From a virus, in the IMG/VR virus record IMGVR_UViG_3300027715_000021: a stretch of 36,962 bases of DNA. One strand, 5' to 3'. Numbering within the stretch: the stretch's first letter is position 1; every line of letters begins with the position of its first letter. The notes under the pieces were generated by a model that was not told where the DNA came from, searched no databases, and worked only from the letters and a program-made list of their open reading frames with translations. Below are positions 1-28,770 of the stretch, piece by piece. A program made the position numbers and the translations under genes.

Positions 1-225
1 TGGAGGAGATGAGTTAGATGAAACTAATAATACACAATAAAACAAATTTAAAAAATAGTGAAATAGTAAAATATATAAATCAAGCTTTATTCGAAATTGA
101 AAATAATGATGCAAAAGATAATTATAAATGGAGAATATTTGAATTTAAAGATGGTATGAAACTAGAAACTTGTTTGAATAAAAAAAGTAGAACATTTTTA
201 TTACATGAATAAAGGAGTTGAGTTA
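1..225. repeat. Terminal direct repeat or circular-assembly overlap, identical to 36738..36962
   Basis: The window start tggaggagatgagttagatg recurs at 36738 and matches through to the window end. ORF 18..212 equals ORF 36755..36949 (offset 36737). Confidence 0.95.
18..212 (+). CDS. Hypothetical small phage protein (64 aa)
   Basis: ORF with a GGAGG-type RBS upstream. No recognisable motif. It is the same gene as 36755..36949 because of the overlap. Confidence 0.6.
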   Translation: MKLIIHNKTNLKNSEIVKYINQALFEIENNDAKDNYKWRIFEFKDGMKLETCLNKKSRTFLLHE

Positions 226-226
226 G

Positions 227-526
227 ATGAATGCTAAAACTATGTTTGAAAAGTTAGGATATAAATTGATTGGAACAAGTTCTTTATTCCAATATAGAAA
301 AGAATATAACGATGCTTGGGATAGATTACACTATGAAGATATTATATTTAATAATAATCTAAAAGGTTATATAACTTTAGCCTGGTATAATGAATTAAAT
401 GACAAAGGAACTTTTAAAAATAAAAGTTATGATGCTATATATATTACTATTGAATTGAACAAAGCAATACAACAACAAATAAAAGAATTAGGATGGTTAG
501 ATGCGAAAAAAGGATTGGAGGAATAA
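227..526 (+). CDS. Hypothetical small phage protein (99 aa)
   Basis: ORF preceded by an aaaggag RBS and tightly packed with its neighbours. No diagnostic motif. Confidence 0.6.
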   Translation: MNAKTMFEKLGYKLIGTSSLFQYRKEYNDAWDRLHYEDIIFNNNLKGYITLAWYNELNDKGTFKNKSYDAIYITIELNKAIQQQIKELGWLDAKKGLEE

Positions 527-528
527 AT

Positions 529-810
529 ATGGATAAATTAGATGAATATGATATATTACTTGGCATAAGTATAATTGGGCTTATATTTATTATTATATGT
601 ATGATTTATGGTTGTTTTTTTTACAAAAACGAATTTGATGAAATATTAGCAACTAATAATTATAAAGTAATAGCGCATGATGTAACAAGTTCAAAATATG
701 GACCTAGTTATGTATTAACTATACAAGATAATACAACAGGAAAAATAATAAGCCAACAAGTAGATGGTACAGGATATTATACAGTATTAGAAAATAATAA
801 AATTAAATAA
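529..810 (+). CDS. Small membrane protein (one N-terminal TM helix)
   Basis: The track ORF is 493..810. The internal ATG at 529 follows a ggagg RBS and the stop of the previous gene. Hydrophobic stretch ILLGISIIGLIFIIICMIYGCFF. Confidence 0.6.
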   Translation: MDKLDEYDILLGISIIGLIFIIICMIYGCFFYKNEFDEILATNNYKVIAHDVTSSKYGPSYVLTIQDNTTGKIISQQVDGTGYYTVLENNKIK

Positions 811-827
811 AAATTGGGGGTGTAGAA

Positions 828-1244
828 ATGAAAAAATATATAATAGGTTTAATAATAGTAACTTTATTATTAACTTTCAATACAATATGTTTTGCAAAAG
901 GTTCAGTAGGACATAGTAGTAGTCATTCATCAGGAGCTAGAAGCTCATCAACATCTCATGGAACAACAAGTAAACCAAGTTCAAGTTCTAAATCAAGCTC
1001 GAGTTCAACGAGTTCACATATAACAACAAGTTCAACATCATCACATATGAGTAATCCATTTTTATGGTTTATGATAGGCGGAGCTGCAGGACATGCAACA
1101 AATGATAATAATGATGTTAATATCTATGGTGAACAACAACAACAAAATTTACAATTAGATAAGAAAAAAATAATTATAACTTTAATTATAATAGCAGTAA
1201 TTATTATAATTGGATTTATTTTAATAAAATTAAATAAAAATTAA
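828..1244 (+). CDS. Ser/Thr/His-rich exported protein with signal peptide and C-terminal TM anchor
   Basis: The N-terminus MKKYIIGLIIVTLLLTFNTICFA is signal-like. It has a long low-complexity S/T/H tract and a C-terminal IIITLIIIAVIIIIGFILI anchor. RBS ggggg upstream. Confidence 0.7.
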   Translation: MKKYIIGLIIVTLLLTFNTICFAKGSVGHSSSHSSGARSSSTSHGTTSKPSSSSKSSSSSTSSHITTSSTSSHMSNPFLWFMIGGAAGHATNDNNDVNIYGEQQQQNLQLDKKKIIITLIIIAVIIIIGFILIKLNKN

Positions 1245-1262
1245 CAAATTTAATAAAAAGTG

Positions 1263-1290
1263 TTGACACTTGACTTAGATATGTTATAAT
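1263..1290 (+). promoter_or_regulatory. Sigma-A type promoter (TTGACA, 16-nt spacer, TGtTATAAT extended -10)
   Basis: TTGACA at 1263..1268 and TATAAT at 1285..1290, with TG at 1282..1283. It lies in an ORF-free tract. Confidence 0.7.
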
Positions 1291-1296
1291 AAGTAT

Positions 1297-1389
1297 AAGT
1301 GATAAGTGCCTCAGGAAATTAACTAACATTTGAGGGTACTTATCTAGAATAGGTCTAAAGAACATATAATAAAAATATGTTCTTTTTTT
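1297..1389 (+). ncRNA. Candidate small RNA of about 93 nt (promoter, long hairpin, intrinsic terminator)
   Basis: A 13-bp bulged hairpin pairs 1301..1313 with 1331..1344 (17-nt loop). The terminator stem 1358..1384 and a T-run follow. No ORF. Confidence 0.45.
1358..1389 (+). terminator. Rho-independent terminator
   Basis: A 10-bp stem aagaacatat/atatgttctt with 7-nt loop aataaaa, followed by ttttt (1385..1389). Confidence 0.7.
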
Positions 1390-1708
1390 ATGTGTTGGTG
1401 ATAATACAGGGTGATATTATTAATGAGTACAGAAATGATAAACTAACAGCCAACAAAGATATTACTATGCATTTAGTATCTAAATATGCAGTGACGGAAT
1501 AGGTAAACGTTTTATGGCGAAATGCCGGTTGAGTTTTAGTGTCAAACCAGGTGACCTACCCCAAAATTATTTGGGTGATATAGTTTAGAGAACTATCTCA
1601 TATAAGGTGCAAATCCTTATCTACATAAATATTTACTATACATTAATATCTAAATTCGATCATGAATGTTTCAAAGGTGGTGAACTGGGAAATTCACTAC
1701 CAAAATAT

Positions 1709-1784
1709 CGCAGATTAGAGAAACGGATATCTCGTTGGGCTCATAACCCAAAAATAGTCAGTTCAACTCTGACATCTGCTACCA
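1709..1784 (+). tRNA. trnM(CAU): tRNA-Met (anticodon CAT), initiator-type, with encoded CCA
   Basis: Manual cloverleaf. The acceptor pairs 1709..1715 with 1774..1780. D arm is gaga/tctc with the GG in its loop. Anticodon stem is ttggg/cccaa with loop cTCATaa. The variable loop is 5 nt. T arm is gtcag-ttcaact-ctgac. Discriminator A is followed by CCA. Confidence 0.9.
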
Positions 1785-1904
1785 GCTATTATATAGCAAA
1801 AGGTGATTACTGCCTCCAATGTGCACAGGTATTAGGAAAAAGAGTAATATGTATTATTCCAGTCTGAATAATCCTTGTACGTTAGGGTTAAACGTACTGC
1901 ATAT

Positions 1905-1949
1905 GTAGATATTGGTATTATAACAGTTCAATTCTGTTAATCTGCACCA
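1905..1949 (+). other. tRNA-like minihelix or tRNA 3-prime half ending in ACCA
   Basis: Canonical T arm aacag-ttcaatt-ctgtt (1922..1938), then aatctgc-a-cca. The 5-prime strand gtagat (1905..1910) pairs with atctgc (1940..1945), including one G-U. No D or anticodon arm could be built. Confidence 0.4.
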
Positions 1950-2000
1950 AAAGATATAATAAAATATATCCTATAAAATAATTTTTTAAGGAGAACCAAA

Positions 2001-2180
2001 ATGAAATGTAATTTATGCGAACAGCACGAACAAAAGCACGAATATTATTTGTGTGATGGAAGTAAAATCTTCATTTGTGAAGAATGTGGAGAAAAACTGT
2101 ACGGTAAATTATTCATTCCAATCATTGACAGTAGACTATTTCATATAATTATGTTATTAGAGTATGTTGAGAAGAATTAA
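2001..2180 (+). CDS. Small Cys-rich (zinc-ribbon-like) protein, 59 aa
   Basis: ATG at 2001 after an aaggag RBS. It has CxxC and CxxC pairs (CNLCEQ ... CEECGE). A GC hairpin at 2181..2195 follows. Confidence 0.55.
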   Translation: MKCNLCEQHEQKHEYYLCDGSKIFICEECGEKLYGKLFIPIIDSRLFHIIMLLEYVEKN

Positions 2181-2324
2181 AGGGCTATATGCCCTATTGT
2201 GAGCTAATAGAATAATCTATTTTATATATAAAGGAAGTGTTGATATGAAATTTAAAAGTTTAAAAGAAGCATGTGAGTATTATAAGAAATATATATTGAA
2301 TAAATAAACGAAAGAAGAATTAAT

Positions 2325-2483
2325 ATGAAAAATTGTGAGCATTGCATATACTATGATTTTAAAGATAGAGAATGTACATTATCAATTGAAACAAAAAAAT
2401 GTGAAAGATATATAAGTATATTTGACTGTTGCACTCAAAATTGCTCTAATTGTAAAAGAAAGTGTGATAAGTATGATAGATAG
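2325..2483 (+). CDS. Small Cys-rich protein, 52 aa
   Basis: ATG at 2325. It has ten Cys residues, including CEHC and CSNC pairs. It falls below the track length cutoff. Confidence 0.45.
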   Translation: MKNCEHCIYYDFKDRECTLSIETKKCERYISIFDCCTQNCSNCKRKCDKYDR

Positions 2484-2572
2484 AATAATAGAACATATAA
2501 AGGATAAACTTGTTATTTGGCAAGGTAAGAGATACTGTAAGAAGTATCATGGTAGAGATTTGAGGTTTTAGA

Positions 2573-2773
2573 ATGAAAGAATTTAAAATTGATATAACTA
2601 TAGATAAATATAAATATAATAACGACATAGTTAAAAGTTTATTAAATGAAATTATATTACAGAATAATCTTGATATAAATAAATTTGATATAAAAACTAA
2701 TGTAGAACATAATTATAAATATATTGATAAAGTATTAATAAATTTTATATTTAATTTAAAGGAAGTGATATAA
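2573..2773 (+). CDS. Hypothetical protein (66 aa)
   Basis: Track ORF whose stop overlaps the TerS start. Confidence 0.5.
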   Translation: MKEFKIDITIDKYKYNNDIVKSLLNEIILQNNLDINKFDIKTNVEHNYKYIDKVLINFIFNLKEVI

Positions 2774-3144
2774 TGCTAACACCTAAACAAAGTATGTTTG
2801 TTAAAGAGTACTTGATAGATTTAAATGCAACACAGGCTTGTATAAGATGTGGATATAGTTCTAATACAGCTAAAGAGCAAGGTTGCAGATTGTTAACCAA
2901 TGCTAACATAAAAGAAGCTATACAAAAAGGTATGGATAAAAGAGCTAATAAAACAGAAATAACAGCTGAATGGATACTCAATGGAATAAAAGATGTTATT
3001 AATAATAGTACGCAAGAAAATAGCAAATTAAAAGGCTATGAATTACTTGGAAAACATCTTAAACTATTCACAGAAAAGCAAGAAGTTATTTCAGATACTA
3101 CATTAACAGTCAACTTTAATATACCAAGACCAAAGGAAGAATAA
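2773..3144 (+). CDS. terS: Terminase small subunit
   Basis: The N-terminus LTPKQSMFVKEYLIDLNATQACIRCGYS..TAKEQGCRLL is the typical Terminase_2 HTH signature. It lies directly upstream of TerL. Confidence 0.85.
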   Translation: MLTPKQSMFVKEYLIDLNATQACIRCGYSSNTAKEQGCRLLTNANIKEAIQKGMDKRANKTEITAEWILNGIKDVINNSTQENSKLKGYELLGKHLKLFTEKQEVISDTTLTVNFNIPRPKEE

Positions 3145-3146
3145 TT

Positions 3147-4553
3147 ATGCAAATAGATATAGACTATAAACCTAATAATAAACAAGAATTATTTCATTCC
3201 TGTAATGCAGATGAATGTGTATATGGAGGAGCTAAAGGTGGAGGTAAGAGTTGTGCATTAGTTATGGAAGCATTAGCTTATGGATTAGAAAATCCAAGAG
3301 CTGATATGTATATATTTAGGGAAACATATGATGATTTAGAAGCAAATATAATAAAAGAATGGAAAGCTAAAGTTTCTAAAGAATTATATGAGTTTAATGA
3401 AACAAAACACTTTGCTACACTAATAAATGGAACTACAGTAAAATTTAGATATATAAGAAATTTTATAGATGCAGAAAGTTATCAAGGACGTTCAATGGAT
3501 TGGATAGGAGTTGATGAATTAACTAAGCATGAAAAAAGAAGTATACAAATATTACTTTCTTGTTTAAGGTCTGCTAAAGGATTCAAACCAAGATTTAGAG
3601 CAACTTGTAATCCAGGCGGTATTGGACATGCTTGGGTTAAAGAAATGTATATAGATGCTACCAACTATGGATTAAATCCAGTAATAGATGAATTAACAGG
3701 ATTAAATAGAGTATTTATTCCTGCTAAAGTGTATGATAATACTATTCTTGTAAAAAATGACCCTAATTATATTAAAAGACTTGAAAATCTACCTGAAAAT
3801 CAAAAGAAAGCTTTTTTATATGGCGATTGGGATATATTTGAAGGACAATACTTTACAGAGTTTAAAAGAGATGTACACGTTATACAACCTTTTGTAATAC
3901 CAGAGCATTGGAATAGATACATTGCACTTGATTATGGGCTTGACATGTTAGCATGTTTATGGATAGCAATAGATGAACAAGACAGAGCTTATGTATATAA
4001 AGAACTATACCAAAATAATTTGATAATATCTGAAGCAGCTGCTAGAATACTTGAAGTAACAGACAAAGATAAAATAAAGAAAAGATACGCACCACCAGAT
4101 TTATGGAATAGAAGACAAGAGACAGGAGATAGTGCAGAAGACATATTTAGAAAGAATGGTGTAGTTTTACACAAAAGTAATAATAATCGTGTTATGGGCT
4201 GGTATGCAGTCAAAGAACACTTAAAGATAGAACTAAGTAGAGATGAACAAACAGGTAAAGAAATAGAAACATCTAAACTGAAGATATTTAGTAACTGTAC
4301 TAACTTAATAAGAACATTACCTCAGTTGCAGCATGATGAACGTAATCCAAATGATGTAAGTAACACACCACATGAACTAACACACATAAATGATGCATTA
4401 AGAGGTTTTTGCATAGAAAGAACACATCCTACTAAAACAGTAATTGAAGATGAGTTGTATGAGATTAATAAAGCTAAGAACAAATACAGAGATAAAGTAA
4501 AAGGATTAGCAGGTAAGAGTGCTAGTAGAAGTTTTATAAACTATGGGGGTTAA
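3147..4553 (+). CDS. terL: Terminase large subunit
   Basis: Walker A GGAKGGGKS, Walker B WIGVDELT, and a C-terminal RNaseH-like nuclease region (IALDYGLDMLACLW). Confidence 0.95.
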   Translation: MQIDIDYKPNNKQELFHSCNADECVYGGAKGGGKSCALVMEALAYGLENPRADMYIFRETYDDLEANIIKEWKAKVSKELYEFNETKHFATLINGTTVKFRYIRNFIDAESYQGRSMDWIGVDELTKHEKRSIQILLSCLRSAKGFKPRFRATCNPGGIGHAWVKEMYIDATNYGLNPVIDELTGLNRVFIPAKVYDNTILVKNDPNYIKRLENLPENQKKAFLYGDWDIFEGQYFTEFKRDVHVIQPFVIPEHWNRYIALDYGLDMLACLWIAIDEQDRAYVYKELYQNNLIISEAAARILEVTDKDKIKKRYAPPDLWNRRQETGDSAEDIFRKNGVVLHKSNNNRVMGWYAVKEHLKIELSRDEQTGKEIETSKLKIFSNCTNLIRTLPQLQHDERNPNDVSNTPHELTHINDALRGFCIERTHPTKTVIEDELYEINKAKNKYRDKVKGLAGKSASRSFINYGG

Positions 4554-4554
4554 T

Positions 4555-4713
4555 ATGTTAGATAAGATATTTAAAAGATTTGGATATATTAAAGAAAATA
4601 AAAAAGAAGACTTGGAAATAATAGAAAAGAAAAAGAGTTTAGAAAAACAATTTAATGACTTAATGCATTACTCTTTAAAGAATTCTATAAAAGGAGGCAC
4701 TAATGGAAGATAA
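4555..4713 (+). CDS. Small hypothetical protein (52 aa)
   Basis: The ATG lies 1 nt after the TerL stop, and the ORF overlaps the portal start by 11 nt. It falls below the track cutoff. Confidence 0.4.
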   Translation: MLDKIFKRFGYIKENKKEDLEIIEKKKSLEKQFNDLMHYSLKNSIKGGTNGR

Positions 4714-6532
4714 AGTAACAAAGGACTGGGCTTTATACGAAGCAGGTAAGCAATATAATCAAACTATAGTTGGAGTTAATGATATTAGTTACTATGATAT
4801 GGTAGATTCTTGTTTAGCCTTTTATGGTGGAAATCAATGGCGTAATGTTCAGGGAGAAGATTTACCTAAACCAGTTTTTAATTTTATTAAAAGAACGTTA
4901 TCATTTTTTATAGCAAGTATAACATCGACTAACATAGCAATAAACTTTGAGAAGTTAGAGTATACAGAAGATGATGAAGATGAAACAGTTGAAATGATAA
5001 ACGCAGAAGTTAAAAATATACTTGAAAAAATGAAGATAGAAAATAGAACAAGAGATTTGCTTTTTGATGCAGGAATAACAGGAGATGCATGTTTGCATTT
5101 TTACTTTGACCCAAACAAGAAAGTATATAAAGGAAAAGGCCAAATAATAAGTGAAATAGTAGATGGTAGCAATGTAATGTTTGGAAATGCTAACAATCCT
5201 AATGTAGAAGCACAACCTTATATAATAATTACAGGTAGAGATATGGCAAAAAACTTACAAGAAGAAGCTAAAGAATATAAAGAGATTACAGAAGTTGAAA
5301 GTGATACAGACTACGAATACATGCCGGATGATAATGGTAAGATTGAAGTAGAAACAGATGACTATGGTAAAGCATTGTATATACTTAAATACTATAAAAA
5401 GAAAATTAAGACTAAAGTAAATAAATTTAATTCAGTAACTGGTAAAAATGAAGAAGTAGAAGAAGAAGTTACGCGTGTATTTTGTAGTAAGTCAGTTAAA
5501 AAAGGATTTATATATCAAGATATAGATACAGGTTATGAATATTATCCTATTGCTTGGTTAAACTGGGAAAAACAAAAAAGTCAATATCATGGTAAAGGTA
5601 TAGTTATAGATATGATACCTAATCAAATAAGTATTAATAAGATGTTTGCTATGGTTATATATCATTTAATGTTAACATCATTTCCTACTGCAATATACAA
5701 TGCAGATAAAGTGAGTGGTTGGAGTTCTGAAATAGGTGCACAAATAGAATTAACAGATTTAGATCCTGGAGATAGTATACGTAACGTTGCTGGATATCTT
5801 GAACCTGCAAGTATGAGTGGACAAATAATAAATGCAATTGATATGGCTATAAAATACACTAAAGAAAGTGTCGGAGTATCAGACGCTGCACTTGGTTCAG
5901 TAGATCCTAAAAATACAAGTGCGATAATAGCAGTTCAAAAAAGTTCAGTTGTGCCTTTAGAAAATATTAAATCTAATTTATATGAATTTATAGAAGATGT
6001 AGGAAGAATATTATTAGATATAATAGGAACTAAATATGGTAAAAGAACTGTATTGATAGAAAATGAAGATGGTAATAAAATAAGTAAAGAATTTGATTTT
6101 AGCACATTAAAAGACCAATGGCTAAATGTACGTGCTGATGTAGGTTCAAGTGCTTATTACAGTGAAGTTGCTTCATTACAAACTCTAGATAACTTACTTA
6201 TGAGTGAGAAGATAGACTTTATACAATACTTAGAAAGAATACCTAAAAACTTAATACCTAATAGTGATAGTTTAATAGAAGAACTAAAACAAAAAATGGG
6301 AATATTACCTAAAGAAAAACTTATTGAATATGAAGATATGGCTAGATTTATTGAAACATTACCAATAGATGAACAAAACTTTTTAAGAAGTTTACCAGAT
6401 GAAAAAATGGAAGAAGAAGTTATGATGCTTATGAAACAACAACCACAAGTTGAACAACCAATTATGAATGAAGATACAATGAATAACGAGTTAATGAAAA
6501 ATGAATTGATGAATAATTTGGAGGTGCAATAA
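4703..6532 (+). CDS. Portal protein
   Basis: 609 aa, immediately after TerL. It has an N-terminal portal-type motif (AFYGGNQWRNVQGEDLPKPVFNFIKR). Confidence 0.85.
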   Translation: MEDKVTKDWALYEAGKQYNQTIVGVNDISYYDMVDSCLAFYGGNQWRNVQGEDLPKPVFNFIKRTLSFFIASITSTNIAINFEKLEYTEDDEDETVEMINAEVKNILEKMKIENRTRDLLFDAGITGDACLHFYFDPNKKVYKGKGQIISEIVDGSNVMFGNANNPNVEAQPYIIITGRDMAKNLQEEAKEYKEITEVESDTDYEYMPDDNGKIEVETDDYGKALYILKYYKKKIKTKVNKFNSVTGKNEEVEEEVTRVFCSKSVKKGFIYQDIDTGYEYYPIAWLNWEKQKSQYHGKGIVIDMIPNQISINKMFAMVIYHLMLTSFPTAIYNADKVSGWSSEIGAQIELTDLDPGDSIRNVAGYLEPASMSGQIINAIDMAIKYTKESVGVSDAALGSVDPKNTSAIIAVQKSSVVPLENIKSNLYEFIEDVGRILLDIIGTKYGKRTVLIENEDGNKISKEFDFSTLKDQWLNVRADVGSSAYYSEVASLQTLDNLLMSEKIDFIQYLERIPKNLIPNSDSLIEELKQKMGILPKEKLIEYEDMARFIETLPIDEQNFLRSLPDEKMEEEVMMLMKQQPQVEQPIMNEDTMNNELMKNELMNNLEVQ

Positions 6533-7198
6533 ATGGATAACAAATTTATATATGAGTACTTAACTAAACTAACAGAAAAATTAAATACTAAACAAGAAAA
6601 ATTTATTGATAAACAAGAAAAAGTGTATGATAAATTAGAAACACAGTTAATAAATAATATAAAAGATATAAAAAAAGAATTAGATGATAAAACACAACAC
6701 AAAGAAATATTTATGTATAGACTTATGGAAAAAATGAAAAACTATCATATAAAAGATGGTTATTGGTATTACGAAGATAAAAAACTAGTTAAAGCGGAAG
6801 CGACAGATGGTAAAGATGGTATTAATGGCAAAGATGGTAAAGATGGATTAAACGGTAAAGATGGGCGTAATGGAGTAGATGGAAGAAACGGAAGAGATGG
6901 AAAAGATGGAAAAGATGGAAAAAAAGGTGCTGATGGATTAAACGGTGCTGATGGACTAACACCAGTTTTTACTGAAACAGAAACTGAAACTTTAACAGCA
7001 TATGAAAAAGCGAAGGTTGAAATAATAAAAAATAATAATAAATATAAATTAAAATTTTCTATACCTAAAGGATTAGCTGGACATAATGGACCAAAAGGCG
7101 ATTCTGTAAAATATGAAGAAATAACATACGAAGAATGGTTATCAAGGAAAAATGCTGGAACTTTAGATGAATTTACAATTTATTATGAAGGGTTGTGA
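6533..7198 (+). CDS. Collagen-like repeat protein (fibre stalk)
   Basis: Seventeen uninterrupted G-X-Y triplets (residues 93..143, nt 6809..6961), an N-terminal coiled-coil-like region and a C-terminal PKGLAGHNGPKGD. Confidence 0.85.
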   Translation: MDNKFIYEYLTKLTEKLNTKQEKFIDKQEKVYDKLETQLINNIKDIKKELDDKTQHKEIFMYRLMEKMKNYHIKDGYWYYEDKKLVKAEATDGKDGINGKDGKDGLNGKDGRNGVDGRNGRDGKDGKDGKKGADGLNGADGLTPVFTETETETLTAYEKAKVEIIKNNNKYKLKFSIPKGLAGHNGPKGDSVKYEEITYEEWLSRKNAGTLDEFTIYYEGL

Positions 7199-9087
7199 TA
7201 AATATGCTGAAAGCAATAGGAAATACTGAAGTAGGTAAACTTATGCTTGGAAATTTAACAAGATGTAAATATTTAGCACAATATAATCAAATATTATATA
7301 GAGAAATAGTTAAAATAGCAACAGGAATTGATATAGAAATATTAGATACTAAAAATGATTATGCTAATATAACAAAAATAGAAGGAAATAGTACACAAAC
7401 AACAAGTATTGCTAATAAAAATTTATTTGATAAAAACAGAGCAATAGTAGGTGCTTTTATAGATCGTAATACTGGTGGATTAACTGCATTTGCTACTGCT
7501 TATTTTAGTGATTATATACTTGTTAATTCTTCAACTTCATATAAATTTAGTGGTAATGAACAACCTACAAACACTCCTTATGCTTGGTATACAGAAGCTA
7601 AAGTTTATATTTCAGGTGGTTTAAATGTTGCTAATGCAATAACAAGTCCTAGTAATGCAAAATATATAAGATTTACCATAAATAGCAGTGCTGGATTACC
7701 AACTATTCAAATAGAACAAGGAACAACTGCTACAAGTTATGAAGCATTTGTTCCAAATAGTCCAAGCTCTAATTACCCAAGCCCAATCATAAATTCAGGT
7801 GATGGTGGAACAGTAACATTATGGTCGCATAAAAAGAATTTGTTTAGTTGTAATTTGGAAAGTGGAACTATGAATAGTTTAAATCAATTAATAGAAAATA
7901 ATACTAGATTAAGAACTGCTGATTTTATAAAAGTTTCAGAAAATACAACTTATTATTTAAAAGTAAAAGAAACAAATATACAATGCACTATATTTTATTT
8001 TAATAAAGAAAGTACAACTGCTATAAGTTTAACTTCATTTTTAAATGTACCTTTAAGTATAACTACTCCTACTAACACTTATAGAATAAAAATAGTATTT
8101 AAAAAAATAGATAATTCAATTATTAATATAAGTGATATATCAGAAATACAACTAGAATTAGGTACAACAGCAACAGCATATGAACCATATCAAGGTGCAG
8201 AGTACCCTATAACATTACCAAGTGGCTACATAGGTGGTAGTTTACCAAATTTAACTGCGGATAGTTATGAATATGTAACAGGTGGTAAGAATTTGTATAA
8301 TAAAACGACTGTTACTTTTGGTAAATATCTTAATAATTTAGGACAAGAAGTTACTTTATCAAGTTGGTATATATCCGACTATATAAACATATCAAATTTA
8401 AAAGATATTACATTATCACCTGTTACTGGAACGAGTGCTGCATTGTGCTTTTATGATTCTAATAAAGTATTTTTATCTGGTACGGCTTATGGTGGAGATA
8501 AATTATTTATGAGTTTTAATGTACCAAATAATGCCAAATATACTAGGTTTTCTATTTACACATATAGTGTTAATAATACTCAATTAGAAATTGGCACTAT
8601 TGCTACAGATACACAACCTTATGGATTACAAAGTGGTAAATATTTAGTTAAAAGAATAGGGAAATTAATTTTAAATGGTAGTGAAATTTATTCTGAACTT
8701 GCTAATTCTACAGATGGTTATAAAAGGTTTGGATTAACAAATACATTAATAAAAATATGTGATTTTAATAAAATATGTTGTTATTGTGATAAATTTTTAG
8801 GGGTTAGCATGGCAAATAATTCTAGTACCGTAATAGGTTATAAAAATTTGGTTTCGGTTGTGAATGCTTCAGGAATGTTAGCTTTTAGGACAACTAGTAC
8901 AACTTATACAACTACAGATTTTAAAAATTTATTAGCAAATAATAATATAATAGTACAGTATCCTTTAGCTATGCCAATATATATAGATACAACTTTACCA
9001 CAAATACAAACATATTTAGATAATACTATAATAACTAGTTTAAGTAATCCTAAACCTAATTTAACATTAGAATATTTAGAAAGGTAG
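7195..9087 (+). CDS. Fibre or receptor-binding-type protein with three CBM-like modules
   Basis: Three modules end in the same motif: IQIEQGTTATSYEAF, IQLELGTTATAYEPY and TQLEIGTIATDTQPY. The N-terminus is of the fibre-like type GNTEVGKLMLGN. An alternative ATG start is at 7204. Confidence 0.6.
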   Translation: MINMLKAIGNTEVGKLMLGNLTRCKYLAQYNQILYREIVKIATGIDIEILDTKNDYANITKIEGNSTQTTSIANKNLFDKNRAIVGAFIDRNTGGLTAFATAYFSDYILVNSSTSYKFSGNEQPTNTPYAWYTEAKVYISGGLNVANAITSPSNAKYIRFTINSSAGLPTIQIEQGTTATSYEAFVPNSPSSNYPSPIINSGDGGTVTLWSHKKNLFSCNLESGTMNSLNQLIENNTRLRTADFIKVSENTTYYLKVKETNIQCTIFYFNKESTTAISLTSFLNVPLSITTPTNTYRIKIVFKKIDNSIINISDISEIQLELGTTATAYEPYQGAEYPITLPSGYIGGSLPNLTADSYEYVTGGKNLYNKTTVTFGKYLNNLGQEVTLSSWYISDYINISNLKDITLSPVTGTSAALCFYDSNKVFLSGTAYGGDKLFMSFNVPNNAKYTRFSIYTYSVNNTQLEIGTIATDTQPYGLQSGKYLVKRIGKLILNGSEIYSELANSTDGYKRFGLTNTLIKICDFNKICCYCDKFLGVSMANNSSTVIGYKNLVSVVNASGMLAFRTTSTTYTTTDFKNLLANNNIIVQYPLAMPIYIDTTLPQIQTYLDNTIITSLSNPKPNLTLEYLER

Positions 9088-11312: not shown

Positions 11313-12230
11313 ATGTATAAAGATAAAACAATTTTAATAACAGGTGGTACAGGAAGTTTTGGACAAGCTATGACTGAAAGGTTATTACAAGAAGAAGTAA
11401 AAGAAATAAGAATATTTTCTAGAAATGAAAAAAATCAATGGGAAATGAAAAAGAAATTTAACGATAGCAGATTAAAATTTATAATTGGAGATATTAAAGA
11501 ATATAATGCAGTAAATAAAGCGGTAGAAAATGTAGACTATGTATTCCATTCAGCTGCTTTAAAACATGTCTTAATATGTCAAGAAAACCCTTTTGAGGCT
11601 ATAAACACTAATGTATTAGGTAGTGAAAATGTTATACTTGCTTCTATAAAAAACAAAGTAGAAAAATTAGTATGCTTAAGTACAGATAAAAGTGCAAATG
11701 CAAGTACAACTTATGGAAGTACAAAGTATTTAATGGAATGTATGTGTAAAGATATAGATAGTAAAGATACTAAAATCATATTAACAAGATATGGCAACGT
11801 ATTAGGCTCAAGTGGTAGTATAATACCGCTGTTTAAAGAACTTAAAAGGCAAAATAAACCACTTACAATAACTAATAGAAACAACACACGTTTTTTTATG
11901 CAAATGCATGAAGCTATTGATTTAGTATTGTATGCTTTAGAAAATGGAAATAATAAAGATATGTTTGTTTATAATAATAAAAGTGCAGATGTTGGAATGG
12001 TTGCAGATTGTATAAGTGATAATCAAATAATAATAGGTAGTGAATGTATAGAAAAAACAGATGAAGCATTACTTACAGTATCTGAACTTAATCATAGTGA
12101 ATTAGCTGATAATTATTTTAGAATAAATGAAAATATAAAATCTAATATAAAATATACAGATTCATTAACAAGTGATAATGCACCAAAATTTAATAAAGAA
12201 GAACTAAAAACTATAATAGATAGTTTATAA
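11313..12230 (+). CDS. NAD(P)-dependent UDP-sugar 4,6-dehydratase (PseB/FlaA1/CapD-like SDR)
   Basis: Rossmann motif ILITGGTGSFG, the motifs IRIFSRNEKNQ, DYVFHSAALKHV and LSTDKS...YGSTK (YxxxK), and TRYGNVLGSSGSIIPLF. All are typical of polysaccharide-biosynthesis dehydratases. Confidence 0.8.
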   Translation: MYKDKTILITGGTGSFGQAMTERLLQEEVKEIRIFSRNEKNQWEMKKKFNDSRLKFIIGDIKEYNAVNKAVENVDYVFHSAALKHVLICQENPFEAINTNVLGSENVILASIKNKVEKLVCLSTDKSANASTTYGSTKYLMECMCKDIDSKDTKIILTRYGNVLGSSGSIIPLFKELKRQNKPLTITNRNNTRFFMQMHEAIDLVLYALENGNNKDMFVYNNKSADVGMVADCISDNQIIIGSECIEKTDEALLTVSELNHSELADNYFRINENIKSNIKYTDSLTSDNAPKFNKEELKTIIDSL

Positions 12231-12239
12231 GGAGGATTT

Positions 12240-14585
12240 ATGGATACATCAGTTGTAATAATCAGTTGCGATAAAAATAAAGATATACACGAACCTTTTT
12301 ATAAATTATATAGTAAATATTGGAAACATAATTTTAAAACTTATATTGTAATGGAAGAACAAAACTGTGAATATTTTAATACAATAAAAGTGAAAGGTAG
12401 TTGGACATCAAGAGTTAGACAAGCACTTGAACAAATTGACACAAAATATGTTATATTTTTGTTAGATGACTTCTTTTTTCATAATAAAGTAGATAATAAT
12501 AAAATAATAGAAATTTTGAAGTCCTACGATGACAATACAGCCGTTTATAATTTAGAATTGAGCAATCACACTAAAGATACTAAAAAGTCTTTAAATGGCT
12601 TTATAAAGCGAAATAACAAGGAGCCTTATTTAAACAGTTGTCAACCTAGTATTCATGATAGAATTAAGTTAATTGAGAGACTTAAAGAAGATAAAACGCC
12701 TTGGGAATGGGAATTAACAGAAGTAGACAGTAAATATGATTTTTATATAAATAACAAAGAGTTAATATTTGATATTGGATATAATGAAACTAAAAAACCA
12801 TGGTGTTTAGTACAAGGAAAATGGAGTATTGAAACTAAAAACTTATTTGAAAAAGAAAATATAAAAGTAGATTATAGTAAACGTGGATTTATAGATTATG
12901 ATTTGTCAATTATAATACCATATTATAAAACAAAAGAATTAACAATTGAGTTATTAGATAACTTGACTAAACAACTTAAACCTAATGTTGAAATTATTTT
13001 AATAGATGATGGATGTAATGAAAAAGCATTTGATAAGTATCCTATAAAAGTAATACATCAAGAAAATAGTGGTGTATCGAGTGCTAGAAATAAAGGTATT
13101 GATATATGCAAAGGTTATAATGTAGTATTTATTGATTCTGATGATAATGTAAGTGAAAACTATATAGATAAAATATTAAATAAAATTAATAAAAATGAAT
13201 TTGATTATTGTTATTTTAGTTGGAAATCAATTGGAGTTACTAAAGAAGATTTTATTATAAATGATAAACCACCTGAATGGAACACATCAGTTTGGAATTG
13301 CATATATAAAAGAGATTTAATAGGAAATATTAGATTTAATGAAAATAAAACGATGTCTGAAGATACAGAATTTAATGAAAAAGTATTAAAAGGCAAAAAA
13401 GAAAATATAACTGATATACTTTACTATTATCATAATGGTAGAGAAAATAGTTTAACTAGTAGATATAGAAATAACGAAATAACTATGAATGAAACTATAA
13501 AATCACAAATAATAGTATACCGTTCATATACAAGTAAAATTGGTGGTGTTGAAACTGCTATTTATAATATGTGTAATTTATTAAGAGATAAATATGAAAT
13601 AATGTTTGTATATGATAATGCTGACCCTATACAATTAAATAGATTAAAAAAATTAGTTAAATGTGTTAAATTTATTGGTCAAAATTTTAAATCTGATTTA
13701 TTTTTAATTTATAGTTTTAATGATTGTACTATTTTAAACAATGTAGTATCAAAAGAATTTATACAACATATTTGTTGCAATGTAGAAGAATTAAGTCAAC
13801 CATATATTAAACATGATAAAATAACTAAGTTTACATCTGATAGTATAGCTGGAGCTAAAGCATTTAAAAGAAAATTTGGTATAGAATGTGATTTATTGCA
13901 TAATTTATTTGATTGTACAGAACCTAAAAAAGTATTAAATTTAATGAGTGCTACAAGACTTAGTTCTGAAAAAGGCTATTATAGAATGAAAGCACTGGCT
14001 AAAAGAATGAACGAAAGAGGACTTTTATTTGAATGGACAGTTTTTACTAATGATTTACCAGATGAAATAATAGATGGTTTTGTATTTAGAGAACCAAGAC
14101 TTAATGTAGTAGATTATATGTGGAATAAAGACTATATATTACAACTTAGCGATAGTGAAAATTGGGGTTGTACAATAACTGAGAGTTTAGATAGAAATGT
14201 TCCAGTAGTTGTAACCGACTTTAATAGTGCATATGAACAAGTAGAAGATAAAGTTAATGGATTTATACTTAAAAGAGATTTAAGCAACTTAGATGAAGTA
14301 ATTGACAACATGTATAGTAAAGACTTAAAAGGCTATAAACATATAAAAAAATATAATGTATCTGAATGGTTATATTTATTAAAAAACTTAAAAGAAACTA
14401 AAAGTAATTATGTATATAATCCAGAAGAAATTGAAGTTGATACATATAACACTTATATAACATTAGCATTAGTAAGAGATGAACAAGGTAATCAAATAGA
14501 ACCTAATAATGAAATAAATATACGAAATATCTCAAGAGTAAGAGAATTATTACGATTTAATTTAATAAAAAGAAAGGAGTTGTAA
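12240..14585 (+). CDS. Multidomain glycosyltransferase: N-terminal GT-A-like domain, GT2 domain, GT4/GT1 domain and a short C-terminal tail domain
   Basis: The N-terminal domain has the DXD-like motif FLLDDFFF. The GT2 core is LSIIIPYYK...ILIDDGCNE...SSARNKG...FIDSDD. The GT4 EX7E motif is ENWGCTITE, followed by VPVVVTD. Confidence 0.85.
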   Translation: MDTSVVIISCDKNKDIHEPFYKLYSKYWKHNFKTYIVMEEQNCEYFNTIKVKGSWTSRVRQALEQIDTKYVIFLLDDFFFHNKVDNNKIIEILKSYDDNTAVYNLELSNHTKDTKKSLNGFIKRNNKEPYLNSCQPSIHDRIKLIERLKEDKTPWEWELTEVDSKYDFYINNKELIFDIGYNETKKPWCLVQGKWSIETKNLFEKENIKVDYSKRGFIDYDLSIIIPYYKTKELTIELLDNLTKQLKPNVEIILIDDGCNEKAFDKYPIKVIHQENSGVSSARNKGIDICKGYNVVFIDSDDNVSENYIDKILNKINKNEFDYCYFSWKSIGVTKEDFIINDKPPEWNTSVWNCIYKRDLIGNIRFNENKTMSEDTEFNEKVLKGKKENITDILYYYHNGRENSLTSRYRNNEITMNETIKSQIIVYRSYTSKIGGVETAIYNMCNLLRDKYEIMFVYDNADPIQLNRLKKLVKCVKFIGQNFKSDLFLIYSFNDCTILNNVVSKEFIQHICCNVEELSQPYIKHDKITKFTSDSIAGAKAFKRKFGIECDLLHNLFDCTEPKKVLNLMSATRLSSEKGYYRMKALAKRMNERGLLFEWTVFTNDLPDEIIDGFVFREPRLNVVDYMWNKDYILQLSDSENWGCTITESLDRNVPVVVTDFNSAYEQVEDKVNGFILKRDLSNLDEVIDNMYSKDLKGYKHIKKYNVSEWLYLLKNLKETKSNYVYNPEEIEVDTYNTYITLALVRDEQGNQIEPNNEINIRNISRVRELLRFNLIKRKEL

Positions 14586-20581: not shown

Positions 20582-23500
20582 ATGGGTTTTAATTTTGATA
20601 AACTTGAAAAAGATAAATCATACAATGATACTAACGATATAAAAAATATGATTAAAACAGTACGTTCTAAACCTATAAATGAAACTATTACAAAACCAAA
20701 AATTAATGAAACGCCTCTTTATACTGGTAAAAAAGCTAGTACATTTGAAAAGATAACATTACCTTTTAGTAGTTTATTAGGTGGTGCTACTGCTGGATTA
20801 AGAGGATTAATAAATTTACCAAGTACTATAGCGGGAACGGATCCTACAATAGGAAATATAACTACATTTGAAGAAAGAGTTAAACAGATACAAGATCAAG
20901 TATCTTCACCTTTAAAAATAACTTCTGAAGTTACAGGTGGCATTGGACAAATGGTACCTTCAATTGGGGCTGCTTTTATAAATCCAGTGTTAGGTATTGC
21001 AACAGGCGCTGGAACTTCTGCTGGAGAAAATTATAGAACATCTATAGAAGAAGGTAAAACTAAAAATCAAGCTAGGGCTTATGGATTAGCTACTGGGGTT
21101 TTAGAAGGAACTTTACAAAAAGCACTTGGTGGAATAAATGTATTTGGAAAAAGTGGTGCTAGTAAATTAATTGGCAAAGAATTAGATGATGTAATTTCTA
21201 AAATCGCTAAAACAAATACTGGTAAAGAAATTGCAAAAGGACTTGCTAGTTCTGGGAGTGAATTTTCTCAAGAATATATTCAATCTGCTATTAATCCAGT
21301 TGTTAGAAATTTAACTTTAGATGAGAATAATGAATTTAAACCAGTATCTAAAGAGGCTTTGTATAGTGGAGTATTAGGTGCACTTACTTCAGGAGTATTA
21401 AATTCTCCTGGAATTTCTAAAAAAATAAAAACAGGAATACAAACAGATATACAAAATAAACAAACATTAAAACAATCTCAAATACCTTTAATACAACCAC
21501 AAATCCAATCTAATCAAGTTTTATCTATAAATAAACAAACTACTCAACAACCTTTACAAAACGCTTTAAATAATGATATAGTGCAACCTCAAGTAAAACA
21601 AACTGATAAAGTTGCTCAACTATTAACTAGTAAACCAAAAGAAATAAAACCAACAATAGGTCAAGAAATTGACAAAACATATCAAGCATTAGTAAATAAA
21701 GGCGCCCCAGTTGATAAACTTGCAAAAGAAACTGGACAAAAAGAACTTAAATTTGCTTATGATAAAATGTTAGGTTCAGAGGGGGAAGGACAAAATACTA
21801 TTGGGAATTTTCAAACTAATTTACAAGGTAACAAAATAGGTAAATCTATAAAAGAAATATGGGAACCTATAAATGAAAGTGGAAAAACACAAGAATTTAG
21901 TGATTATTTATTGCATAAACATAATATTGATAGAATGGTACAAGAAAAACCAGTATTCGGAGAAAATGTTACAGCTCAAGATAGTGCTAATATAGTATCA
22001 AATTATGAGAAAACTAATCCTGAATTTATTGAATGGTCTAAAGATATTAACAACTTTAATAAAAATGAACTTCAAAATATGGTAGATGCGGGAATAACAA
22101 GTAAAGAAATTCAAAATTACTTAAATGAAACTTATGATAATTATGTTAGAATACAAAGAGAACAAACTAAAACACAAGGTCCAGTTGGATATACACAAAC
22201 AGGAGTTAAAGTAAATAATCCTATACAAAAAGCAAAAGGTGGTAATCAAAATATATTACCATTAGAACAAAGTATGGCTGAACAAGCTTTAAAAACTAGA
22301 AATGCGATAAGAAGAAATCTATTTGGTAAAGAACTATTAAAAGTAACTGGTGGAGTAAAAACAGATACAACAGATGTAACTAGTCCAGTAAATGAAAAAA
22401 ATGGAGAATATACATTTACAGTATATGAAAATGGTCAACCGGTAGTGATACCACTTAGTAAAGAATTATATGATAGTATAAAACCTAAAGTTAAGAGTGG
22501 AGTAGAAGATTTAACTGCTGTAAAAGCAGTGCAAGGTTTAAGTAGATTACAAAGAGATTTAATAACTGCTAAAAATCCTATATTTACTATAACTAACTTT
22601 TTAAAAGATTTTCAAGATGGTATATTTAATTCTAAATATCCAACTAGTTTTGTTAAAAATTATCCTAAAGCTGCTTATGAAATGCTTACTAAATCAGATA
22701 ATTGGCAACAATATGAAGGCCTTGGAGGCTCACAAAATACATTTTTTGATTATGATACAGGGATTGTTAAAGATAAAGGCGTAATTGGAACTTTAGGACA
22801 ATGGATTGAAAAAGCAAATAACTTTGTAGAACAAGCACCAAGATTTAGTGAGTTTTTAAGTACATTAGAAAAAGGAAAGTCTTTAAATGAAGCAATGTAT
22901 AATGCTGCTGAAGTAACAACTAATTTCAAACGTGGTGGAGATATTGCTAAAGCAATAAATAGAAATGGTGTTAACTTTTTTAATGCATCTATACAGGGTT
23001 TTGATAAATTTAGAAGAAACTTTACAGAATTAGAAAATGCTACTGATTATATAAAATTATTATCTAAAGTAGCTATTATTGGTGTTGGACCCGCTTTAAT
23101 TAATGATATACTTCTTTCTGATAATGAAGAATACAAAGATTTAGATGATAGAACAAAAGATGGATATTATTTATTTCCACAAGGAAATGGTAAGTTTATT
23201 AAAATACCTAAAGGAAGAATGTTAAGTATATTTGGAAGTGCTGCTAGAAGAACTTTAGAAGCATCAAAAGGAAATGAACAAGCATTTAAAGGTTTTGGTG
23301 GATTTGCAACTCAACAAGTGGCACCTATTAATCCATTTGAAAGTAACTTATTATCTCCAATTGCTCAAGTTTCTACTAATAAATCTTGGATGGGTACACC
23401 AATAGTATCACAATCATTACAAAATTTATATCCAGGCATGCAATCTGATGAAAAAACATCAAGTTTAGCTAAAAAAATAGGTGAAAGTTTAAATATATCA

Positions 23501-24676
23501 CCTAAAAAAATAGATTACTTAATTAAAGGATATACTGGAGGTATTGGACAAGTAGTTATGCCTAAATTAACACCTCAAGCTGAACAAGGAATATTAACAA
23601 ATAAATTTCAAACTGATAGTGTTTATAGTAGTAAAACTGGTAGTGATTTTTATGATACTTTAGATAAAAAAAATACTGAGAGTGCTAATGAAAAAATAAA
23701 GAAAAATCTTGAAAAAGGAACTACTACTTATACTAGTTTAGAAAGTAAATATTTAACTTCTAAAAGTTCTGAAATATCTGATTTATATAAACAAAAAAAA
23801 GCAATTCAAAATTCTGATATTACTGATAAAGAAAAACAAGAACAAACAAGAAAAATACAAATAGAAATAAATAAAAAAGAAAAAGAAGCATTAAATGAAC
23901 TTAAAAATCCTGATAGAGTAGATTACTTTAAAAAATTACCTGAAATAGAAAATTCTAAAACAGATGAAAACAAAACTGTTTTAAAAGGAAAATTAATATT
24001 AGATAGTAATTATTCTAATAAAAACAAAATAGAATTTATGGATGAAATGTTATCTGATGAACAAAAAAAAGAAGTTAATATATTAGGTAATAAATTAAAT
24101 ATACCAATTTTAGATTCTTATAGAGTAATATCTACTATTAAAAATGCTTCAGGAGATAAAGATAATGCAGATAAAACAATAAGCGGTTCATCTACCGCTA
24201 AACAAGTTTTAGGTGTGTTAAATATGAATTTAGATAATAATAAGAAAAATGAAATATTAGATTATTTAACTGATTCTAAAGAACCAATAAAAATAGAACA
24301 AATAGATAATATAAAAAAAGATGAACAAACTTTAACAAATTATTTTAGTTTATCTAAAGAGGCACAAAATAAAGTATCTAATAATAAATTATTAGGAATA
24401 GATGAAAATGAATCAATTGATTATTTTAAAAAAATAAGTGATATTAAATCTGATAAAGATATTAATGGTAAAACTATAACTAACAGTAAAAAAAATAAAG
24501 TGAAAAAATTAATTGGTAGTTTAAATTTATCCGTACCACAAAAAATAATATTAGAAAAACAATCTGGTTATGATAACAAATCTAATTATGGGACTATTTA
24601 TAATTATATTGGTAAATTAAATATTAGTAATACTGAAAAAAATAAAATATTAAAAGATATGGATATTATAAAATAA
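20582..24676 (+). CDS. Giant virion protein (1364 aa), of tape-measure or internal-ejection type
   Basis: The N-terminal part has Gly/Ala-rich hydrophobic segments (GGATAGLRGLI, GGIGQMVPSIGAAFINPVLGIATGAG), followed by a long helical Lys-rich C-terminal half. It is the largest ORF of the genome. Confidence 0.55.
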   Translation: MGFNFDKLEKDKSYNDTNDIKNMIKTVRSKPINETITKPKINETPLYTGKKASTFEKITLPFSSLLGGATAGLRGLINLPSTIAGTDPTIGNITTFEERVKQIQDQVSSPLKITSEVTGGIGQMVPSIGAAFINPVLGIATGAGTSAGENYRTSIEEGKTKNQARAYGLATGVLEGTLQKALGGINVFGKSGASKLIGKELDDVISKIAKTNTGKEIAKGLASSGSEFSQEYIQSAINPVVRNLTLDENNEFKPVSKEALYSGVLGALTSGVLNSPGISKKIKTGIQTDIQNKQTLKQSQIPLIQPQIQSNQVLSINKQTTQQPLQNALNNDIVQPQVKQTDKVAQLLTSKPKEIKPTIGQEIDKTYQALVNKGAPVDKLAKETGQKELKFAYDKMLGSEGEGQNTIGNFQTNLQGNKIGKSIKEIWEPINESGKTQEFSDYLLHKHNIDRMVQEKPVFGENVTAQDSANIVSNYEKTNPEFIEWSKDINNFNKNELQNMVDAGITSKEIQNYLNETYDNYVRIQREQTKTQGPVGYTQTGVKVNNPIQKAKGGNQNILPLEQSMAEQALKTRNAIRRNLFGKELLKVTGGVKTDTTDVTSPVNEKNGEYTFTVYENGQPVVIPLSKELYDSIKPKVKSGVEDLTAVKAVQGLSRLQRDLITAKNPIFTITNFLKDFQDGIFNSKYPTSFVKNYPKAAYEMLTKSDNWQQYEGLGGSQNTFFDYDTGIVKDKGVIGTLGQWIEKANNFVEQAPRFSEFLSTLEKGKSLNEAMYNAAEVTTNFKRGGDIAKAINRNGVNFFNASIQGFDKFRRNFTELENATDYIKLLSKVAIIGVGPALINDILLSDNEEYKDLDDRTKDGYYLFPQGNGKFIKIPKGRMLSIFGSAARRTLEASKGNEQAFKGFGGFATQQVAPINPFESNLLSPIAQVSTNKSWMGTPIVSQSLQNLYPGMQSDEKTSSLAKKIGESLNISPKKIDYLIKGYTGGIGQVVMPKLTPQAEQGILTNKFQTDSVYSSKTGSDFYDTLDKKNTESANEKIKKNLEKGTTTYTSLESKYLTSKSSEISDLYKQKKAIQNSDITDKEKQEQTRKIQIEINKKEKEALNELKNPDRVDYFKKLPEIENSKTDENKTVLKGKLILDSNYSNKNKIEFMDEMLSDEQKKEVNILGNKLNIPILDSYRVISTIKNASGDKDNADKTISGSSTAKQVLGVLNMNLDNNKKNEILDYLTDSKEPIKIEQIDNIKKDEQTLTNYFSLSKEAQNKVSNNKLLGIDENESIDYFKKISDIKSDKDINGKTITNSKKNKVKKLIGSLNLSVPQKIILEKQSGYDNKSNYGTIYNYIGKLNISNTEKNKILKDMDIIK

Positions 24677-28539: not shown

Positions 28540-28770
28540 TTAGTTTCCTCCTAAATTTATTCCACAATGTCTACAAAATATATCATTTTCATTTATATCA
28601 GTACCACATTCGCATTTTAATTTGCTATGTTTTTTTAATATTATAGTATTCCCTTCAGTATAAATTTCTAATCCATCTTTTATATTTATATTTAAAACTT
28701 TTCTTAATTCACTTGGTAGCACTATTCTACCTAAATCATCTATTTTACGTATTATTCCAGTTGATTTCAT
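28540..28770 (-). CDS. AbrB/SpoVT-family DNA-binding protein with a C-terminal zinc ribbon
   Basis: GIIRKIDDLGRIVLPSELRKVLNI..GLEIY is the swapped-hairpin AbrB signature. The C-terminus is CECG...CRHCG. Confidence 0.8.
   Translation of the reverse strand: MKSTGIIRKIDDLGRIVLPSELRKVLNINIKDGLEIYTEGNTIILKKHSKLKCECGTDINENDIFCRHCGINLGGN

Follow-up and report, generated by a model that had tools for sequence, protein, structure and literature searches.

A single transfer RNA (tRNA) gene of the bacterial initiator class is encoded in the viral DNA recorded in IMG/VR as IMGVR_UViG_3300027715_000021, a stretch of 36,962 nucleotides (nt) that is referred to here, at its full length, as the window. The gene lies at 1709-1784 on the + strand and, as judged from its letters and predicted fold, its assignment to the initiator class is solid. 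The changes that it has accumulated form the pattern of purifying selection on tRNA structure and identity under strong AT pressure, and not the pattern of a pseudogene. We see an even chance that the tRNA supplements or sustains the supply of initiator tRNA in infection, as an optional fitness gene and not as a core function. Taken alone, the gene is of a kind to be expected among phage accessory genes, and the case described here is a well-documented but ordinary example of a phage-borne initiator tRNA.

The tRNA gene and its class

ARAGORN, run on the whole window, returned one tRNA, a tRNA-Met(CAT) on the + strand with the anticodon cat at position 34, and Rfam family RF00005 matched 1709-1781 (54.2 bits, E 4e-9) as the sole family over its gathering score. 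A preliminary description of this DNA had called the gene the only canonical tRNA of the phage, and both results agree with it. Likewise, a permissive Rfam scan of 1300-2100 gave nothing credible besides the tRNA. The gene reads CGCAGAUUAGAGAAACGGAUAUCUCGUUGGGCUCAUAACCCAAAAAUAGUCAGUUCAACUCUGACAUCUGCUACCA, and the initiator hallmarks that had been listed in the preliminary description are all present: C1xU72, which forms no Watson-Crick pair and is flagged as non-standard in the Rfam alignment (cmscan); A11:U24 in the D stem, which closes on a D loop of 7/8 nt; the pairs G29:C41, G30:C40 and G31:C39 in the anticodon stem; the anticodon CAU within the canonical 7-nt loop CUCAUAA; and an encoded CCA, in an acceptor end that also carries G2:C71, C3:G70 and A73. 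The sub-type is given by a GAGA/UCUC D stem in combination with a UUGGG/CCCAA anticodon stem. In its minimum free energy (MFE) fold the tRNA forms the cloverleaf and leaves position 1 unpaired (-20.9 kcal/mol, z = -3.3), a stability equalled by one of 200 shuffles, and all 20 stem pairs are Watson-Crick. Three other datasets contain the same phage at 100% identity, and the tRNA is covered, with identical sequence, by one independent ENA contig. Searches by exact protein sequence arrived at no other source: the endolysin and a capsid-region protein gave only these identical assemblies, and for TerL, TerS, orf828 and the portal there was no record.

The roles of 1:72, 2:71, 3:70, 11:24 and 29-31:39-41 in initiator identity are established by rules of the RajBhandary type, with G2:C71, C3:G70 and A73 as determinants for the formyltransferase and for MetRS. 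Elongator tRNAs have a Watson-Crick 1:72 pair and Y11:R24, and are without the three G:C pairs. As a stand-in for the isotype models of tRNAscan-SE, profile hidden Markov models (nhmmer) were built from the other CAU tRNAs. The phage tRNA scored 38.9 bits with the initiator profile and 22.4 bits with the elongator/Ile2 (other-CAU) profile, and the controls were placed correctly, with initiator/other-CAU scores of 70.9/39.1 for metY, 13.9/61.3 for metT and 16.6/58.1 for ileX. In profile terms, the modest initiator score shows a divergent member of the initiator class. In E. coli genomes the phage tRNA had a median of four matching places per genome, the best of which is flanked by argG and rimP, where the initiator gene metY is located. 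Identity to metY was 55/77 with one 1-nt gap and to the lysidine-type ileX 39/76, and the elongators metT/metU were alignable only with many gaps. The hallmarks were also followed through 189 distinct CAU tRNAs from the fetched loci. Where the three G:C pairs were present (n = 163), A11:U24 was found in 146 tRNAs and a 1:72 mismatch in 139, the exceptions being mostly archaeal-type; where they were absent (n = 26), C11:G24 was found in 25 and a paired 1:72 in 23.

In combination, the hallmarks, the best match to metY, the profile scores and the co-segregation carry the initiator assignment, and the label 'initiator-type tRNA-Met' given in the preliminary description stands. Its further argument, that such a gene does not fit codon-usage compensation, is sound reasoning, since an initiator tRNA cannot serve that role. 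Two other CAU identities were considered and rejected: a lysidine-type tRNA-Ile2, on the distance to ileX, the low non-initiator score and hallmarks opposite to the Ile2 pattern of a paired 1:72, Y11:R24 and an anticodon stem without GGG/CCC; and an elongator tRNA-Met, on the gappy metT/metU alignments and on hallmarks that the 26 non-initiator CAU controls lack.

Conservation of the tRNA and occurrence of its type

Relative to metY, six stem pairs have changed on both sides (4:69, 6:67, 7:66, 13:22, 28:42 and 52:62), one pair shows a one-sided change from G.U to A:U, and no pair is broken. The GC content is 43% in the tRNA against 26% in the genome, and the G:C pairs that survive are known functional ones, namely 2:71, 3:70, 29-31:39-41, 10:25 and 53:61. 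Selection on the structure is shown by 20 of 20 Watson-Crick pairs, together with six compensatory changes and the absence of broken pairs. When 14 initiator tRNAs of this sub-type from phages were compared, compensatory change was seen in 10 of the 20 pairs, with a single broken cell.

The frequency of the 1:72 combination was addressed with a scan for U72-type tRNAs, defined by an initiator anticodon arm with G70 C71 U72 A73 at the right distance, which covered at least 120 cellular and at least 120 viral stretches. Among the cellular matches listed, 1:72 was CxU in 76, UxU in 32 and an archaeal-type A:U in 14, CxU being the commonest combination among the U72-type cellular initiators sampled. 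The listed cellular matches belonged to Actinomycetota, Bacteroidota, Chloroflexota, Planctomycetota, some Pseudomonadota and others, and one of the 120 U72-type cellular loci among the matches listed was from Bacillota, a Lachnospiraceae metagenome-assembled genome (MAG) with CxU. Because CxU is frequent in cellular genomes, C1xU72 is a common natural initiator variant and not a phage-specific alteration. Given the single Bacillota locus, and A72 in an attP-like initiator 3' half of a Ruminococcus phage, U72 may still differ from the initiator of this phage's host. The preliminary description had envisaged a copy with altered identity elements. This part of it was not supported, CxU being common in cells and both the anticodon loop and the three G:C pairs matching the consensus.

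A lone initiator tRNA had likewise been presented as unusual, a view that the viral loci do not sustain: at least 71 of them contain exactly one tRNA, and in 26 (each at least 8 kb) the tRNA lies at least 1 kb from either end. A second scan, which used the D-stem and anticodon-stem signature, gave 17 viral loci, many of them AT-rich with a single tRNA, in which 1:72 was CxU, UxU, AxA, CxA or U:A. The closest sequence to the phage tRNA among the matches listed was viral (locus L186, 62/73), and the best cellular one reached 55/73. Initiator-type tRNAs are thus common on viral contigs; small phages that carry one as their sole tRNA have received too little description, but their kind is known. 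Phage tRNA-fMet has been mentioned for jumbo phages (PMC7760394, PMC10747093), and a large phage tRNA survey does not separate initiators from Met (PMC6409571). The tRNA-Met of Lactobacillus phage 3-521 was left unused as a comparator, having only two anticodon-stem G:C pairs and not being a clear initiator. As a separate observation, the AT-rich viral loci L270, L271, L274, L279, L281 and L283 carry initiator-type tRNAs with A1xA72 (AGCG...CGCAA), a combination that was not among the cellular matches of a scan that required U72 and so could not find it.

The accessory segment and the phage genome

A sister phage is recorded as IMGVR_UViG_3300042808_000015 (L011, L290 and L291 in our locus numbering, all the same phage). 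Its flanking genes are 93-100% identical in amino-acid sequence to those of the window and its flanking DNA blocks 75-99% identical, and it has no tRNA. In L011 the equivalent of window position 1393 is joined directly to that of position 1902, as seen by blastn and in junction alignments. The window thus holds an accessory segment of about 508 nt with the tRNA, at 1394-1901, which is absent from L011/L291. Its edges are imperfect direct repeats, ATG|TGTTGGTGATAATACAG on the left and ATG|TAGATATTGGTATTATAACAG on the right, an arrangement that fits either insertion, or deletion by recombination between the repeats. The tRNA itself is located in a non-coding gap before the packaging genes, in a leader of about 640 nt. 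Upstream of the tRNA region, in place of orf227, orf493 and orf828 (window 229-1183), L011 has unrelated sequence at 3974-4684, and the stretch between the replication and packaging modules is a hypervariable accessory locus. Relatives were gathered through TerL, as 16 viral contigs, L011 among them, with 50-72% TerL identity and flanks that extended up to 6 kb to either side of TerL, or less where the contig was short. The tRNA core had no exact copy in the scan of viral contigs and none in these 16 loci.

A decayed partial copy of the tRNA, comprising the T arm, the 3' acceptor strand and CCA (CAGTTCAATTCTGTTAATCTGCACCA), was located by local alignment at 1923-1950 (+), 138 nt downstream of the gene. 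Its alignment score of 26 was reached by 4 of 2000 shuffles and by none of 322 real windows, and the 45-nt block around it is kept almost without change in L011. A probe made from this conserved 3' fragment and run on viral and metagenome contigs found only the one sister phage. The neighbourhood may also be described as three tandem diverged units of about 170 nt, for which the evidence is marginal, the observed scores being reached by 3-8% of shuffles. An upstream tRNA-like piece at about 1566-1640 was rejected, its score being reached by 724 of 2000 shuffles and its fold having a z of -0.8, and the calls of flanking tRNA-like elements made by relaxed ARAGORN were mostly noise.

With regard to expression signals, a consensus scan found a perfect sigma-70-type promoter at 1263-1290 on the + strand (TTGACA-16-TATAAT, 12/12, with TG before the -10), which points toward the tRNA region and is conserved in L011. 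Between this promoter and the accessory segment stands a terminator-like element at 1361-1392 (+), an AT-rich hairpin (GAACATAT..ATATGTTC) followed by T7, which was recognized by eye and is also conserved in L011; the terminator scanner needs at least three G:C pairs and did not list it. Inside the segment and upstream of the tRNA, the consensus scan gave a weak terminator-like hairpin with a T-rich tail at 1515-1537 (+). Folding identified a stable 9-bp hairpin at 1676-1702 (+), which ends 6 nt 5' of the tRNA (-12.3 kcal/mol, z -4.45, none of 200 shuffles as stable) and possibly belongs to the leader of the precursor. From the tRNA to the genes that follow it, the scan gave no + strand terminator. 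The stretch 1263-1392 (+) was noted in its own right as a candidate small RNA gene, in which the promoter is followed by about 70 nt with a CCUCA...UGAGG hairpin and then by the AT-rich hairpin and T7. L011 keeps the promoter and the terminator-like hairpin of this unit and does not keep its middle, and relaxed ARAGORN placed a dubious 'tRNA-Phe(aaa)' over it, at 1322-1400.

An exact direct repeat of 225 nt is present at both ends of the window (1-225 and 36738-36962), and the contig is consequently taken as a complete genome of 36,737 nt, circular or terminally redundant. Directly downstream of the tRNA are TerS, TerL and a P22-like portal, and the other genes include an Amidase_2+SH3 endolysin, the recombination genes Erf recombinase, NinB and RusA, and DnaD-like loaders. 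Gene searches with Pfam and PHROGs, which covered all open reading frames (ORFs) of at least 100 amino acids (aa) and, in the early and replication regions, most of the smaller ones, gave no hit to an integrase, integrase-type recombinase or repressor. Megablast of window 1-8000 gave no match among deposited phages, and a tblastn search with TerL against deposited phages gave nothing above 42% identity. Every named TerL relative (58-69% identity) belongs to Bacillota, and most belong to Clostridia (Aminipila, Anaerovorax, Dehalobacter, Christensenellaceae and Acetanaerobacterium), with Paenibacillus as one further relative. From these relatives and from the Amidase_2+SH3 endolysin, the host is probably a low-GC, Clostridia-like member of the Bacillota.

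Several other genes were noted in passing. A 76-aa protein at 28540-28770 (-) is labelled antitoxin by PHROGs and placed by NCBIfam in the AbrB/SpoVT regulator family, and has no adjacent toxin gene; its SpoVT-like similarity fits a spore-forming Bacillota host. The structural block includes, at 11313-14585 (+), a gene resembling NAD-dependent epimerase/dehydratase (305 aa) and a 781-aa double glycosyltransferase (GT2 + GT1), which may have a role in the modification of virion or host-surface glycans. A collagen-repeat protein adjoins the portal gene at 6533-7198 (+), and a 1364-aa protein with an LPD38 domain, of the large polyvalent protein type, is encoded at 20582-24676 (+). At 30573-31048 (-), within a DUF7666 gene (30352-31431), a 27-nt unit is repeated in tandem at about 90% identity, and the independent ENA assembly terminates inside this run.

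Proposed role, competing explanations and known systems

A contribution to initiator supply would involve the following steps. The tRNA would be transcribed during infection, host RNase P would cut off its 5' leader, and maturation of the 3' end would be simple because CCA is already encoded. Charging with methionine by host MetRS would proceed via the CAU anticodon and A73, formylation by the host formyltransferase via the 1:72 mismatch, G2:C71, C3:G70 and A11:U24, and placement in the P site via the three G:C pairs. As an outcome, the initiator tRNA pool would be raised or sustained for phage protein synthesis. That initiator tRNAs turn up repeatedly on viral contigs, in many cases with no other tRNA, points to a benefit that phages have gained more than once.

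A number of observations weigh against this role. The phage tRNA has A4:U69, A6, A13:U22, A45, A46 and A48, and thereby departs from G4:C69, G6, C13:G22, G45, G46 and C48, which are kept in at least 99% of 75 cellular initiators and in about 81-96% of viral ones. These near-invariant positions are typical of the initiator family and do not define it; departures from them could possibly reduce folding, stability or function. From the terminator-like hairpins (about 1361-1392 and 1515-1537) up to the tRNA, no convincing promoter was found. Within the fetched flanks, none of the 16 TerL relatives has a tRNA near TerL. Since this absence extends to the close sister phage, the tRNA is dispensable.

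The gap in the sister phage and in the TerL relatives also lends something to a reading that we consider unlikely, in which the tRNA is a passenger or relic, derived from a small repeated segment in a hypervariable locus, of low fitness value and heading to decay. The decayed partial copy that flanks the gene and the imperfect direct repeats at the segment edges are in keeping with such an origin, as are the tandem diverged units, marginal as they are (3-8% of shuffles), the loss of G45, G46 and C48 from the core, and an initiator profile score well below the 70.9 bits of metY. However, decay would not be expected to leave 20 stem pairs intact, with six compensatory changes and none broken, nor to retain every functional determinant despite the strong AT pressure. 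The neighbouring decayed copy shows what decay looks like in this locus, and the tRNA is unlike it.

The preliminary description had proposed instead a role in counter-defence, with the phage tRNA as a toxin-resistant replacement or decoy for a host initiator that is hit by GNAT toxins of the AtaT type or PIN toxins of the VapC type. We regard this as distinctly improbable. AtaT of E. coli discriminates tRNAfMet mainly via G4G5G6:C67C68C69, and a purine at position 72 has been suggested to help catalysis (Yashiro et al.; PMC7595197). At the positions read by AtaT the phage tRNA has A4:U69, G5:C68, A6:U67 and U72, so that two of the three G:C pairs are replaced, which speaks for the proposal. 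Viral tRNAs are more generally loose here: G4G5G6 is kept in 71 of 75 cellular bacterial-type tRNAs and in 41 of 68 viral ones (loci L020-L259; Fisher p 4e-7), in a comparison that comprises U72-type tRNAs only and sequences that are not phylogenetically independent, uncorrected for phylogeny. In cellular tRNAs GGG is kept at 4-6 whatever the GC content, and the viral loosening, which is strongest at 5-7:66-68, is seen also in high-GC contigs. U72 moreover appears rare in Bacillota, the likely host phylum, to judge from the single locus noted above among the listed matches, and evasion of host tRNA-targeting enzymes by phage tRNAs is a published hypothesis (PMC10264068).

Other observations count against counter-defence. 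VapC-type nucleases cut the initiator anticodon stem-loop (PMC4705866, PMC10264068), and in the phage tRNA this region is unchanged, positions 29-41 being identical to the consensus, which is kept at 99-100% in initiators from cells and viruses alike; the anticodon-loop mutations that have been published as the mark of evasion from nucleases are therefore missing. The acceptor changes run from GC to AT as in the other stems, every non-determinant stem pair having drifted to A:U in a genome of 26% GC, and the looseness of viral initiators relative to cellular ones extends to many conserved positions besides 4-6. CxU is a normal cellular variant that occurs also in a Lachnospiraceae MAG. The putative antitoxin gene of the phage, which might have been taken as support for a toxin story, was rejected as such on its NCBIfam placement among the AbrB/SpoVT regulators. 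The acceptor-stem differences would thus fit escape from a toxin, but AT drift and relaxed constraint would explain them equally well. A more general form of the idea, for which we have little expectation, is that phage initiator tRNAs have been selected to differ from cellular ones at 4-7:66-69 and 72, the positions read by acetylating GNAT toxins and other acceptor-end enzymes. If this were true, the acceptor-stem differences would keep initiation going in a host that disables its own initiator as a form of abortive infection.

Two further explanations concern the position of the gene. The tRNA lies in the non-coding leader upstream of small ORFs and terS-terL on the same strand, the very stable hairpin abuts its 5' end, and no + strand terminator was seen in the scan before the next genes; all this could suggest an RNA-processing or regulatory element, as a cleavage signal for RNase P/RNase Z or a structured leader for the packaging-gene transcript. 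This is very unlikely, as the complete set of initiator identity elements would be superfluous in a processing signal and the sister phage, which has no tRNA, expresses these downstream genes all the same. Scarcely credible is tRNA-dependent lysogeny, in which the phage would disrupt the host initiator gene and complement it, or the tRNA would serve as the phage attachment site (attP): it is established for actinobacteriophages (PMC10865867), a 3'-end fragment of the tRNA lies 138 nt downstream of the gene, and attP-like initiator 3' halves occur in phages such as Ruminococcus phage NatCom_29429, but the searches described above found no integrase, such recombinase or repressor, the recombination genes are Erf, NinB and RusA, and the 225-nt terminal repeat is typical of a free phage genome. 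The NatCom_29429 element itself (locus L287, PV036441.1, about 1408-1460) is an unannotated initiator 3' half, CTCATAACCCGAAGGTCGTCAGTTCAAATCTGGCTCCCGCAACCA, with A72, which overlaps small coding sequences annotated as 'hypothetical protein' and resembles an attP core that would direct integration to a tRNA-fMet gene of the host.

Phage tRNA surveys usually label every CAU tRNA as Met, so that phage initiator tRNAs have barely been discussed. The present phage is a clean case: its small genome is complete and encodes one intact initiator tRNA, which a nearly identical sister phage is without. This natural pair of tRNA-plus and tRNA-minus phages would make the fitness value of the gene, be it in supply or in counter-defence, directly testable. 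Acceptor-stem positions that hardly ever change in cellular initiator tRNAs are variable in viral ones, which may merit a phylogeny-aware survey.

Among known systems, the cellular initiators metY/metZWV of E. coli share with the phage tRNA the anticodon CAU, the loop CUCAUAA, a non-Watson-Crick 1:72, G2:C71, C3:G70, A73, A11:U24 and the pairs 29-31:39-41. The phage tRNA differs from them in being phage-encoded, in having U72 where E. coli has A72, in A:U pairs at 4:69, 6:67, 7:66, 13:22, 28:42 and 52:62, and in its 7/8-nt D loop. Tyrosine-integrase phages with tRNA-dependent lysogeny (Guerrero-Bustamante and Hatfull 2024, PMC10865867) resemble the present phage in being small, with a single complete tRNA that does not serve codon supply; their mechanism needs the integrase and an attP that overlaps a host tRNA of the same isotype, whereas no integrase was detected here. 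The phage tRNAs that counter host defence (van den Berg et al. 2023, PMC10264068; the T5 tRNA against PARIS, PMC11464382) are likewise phage copies of a tRNA that toxins can target, and the tRNA of the window also differs from the canonical form at some positions read by AtaT. However, those cases involve elongator tRNAs with changes in the anticodon loop or a demonstrated rescue, and the loop is unchanged in the present tRNA; Shigella phages, moreover, generally avoid tRNA-fMet (van den Berg et al., PMC10264068). The closest parallel is with other viral initiator tRNAs (IMG/VR loci L186, L208 and L270-L284; Erwinia and wastewater jumbo phages, PMC7760394 and PMC10747093), which have the same hallmarks and variable 1:72 mismatches. 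The IMG/VR examples share the GAGA/UCUC and UUGGG/CCCAA sub-type and are often the sole tRNA in AT-rich loci. Relative to these viral initiators, of which the best match is only 62/73, the copy in the window is more AT-shifted and more divergent at the core, and it is here accompanied by a complete phage genome and by the genome of a sister that lacks the tRNA.

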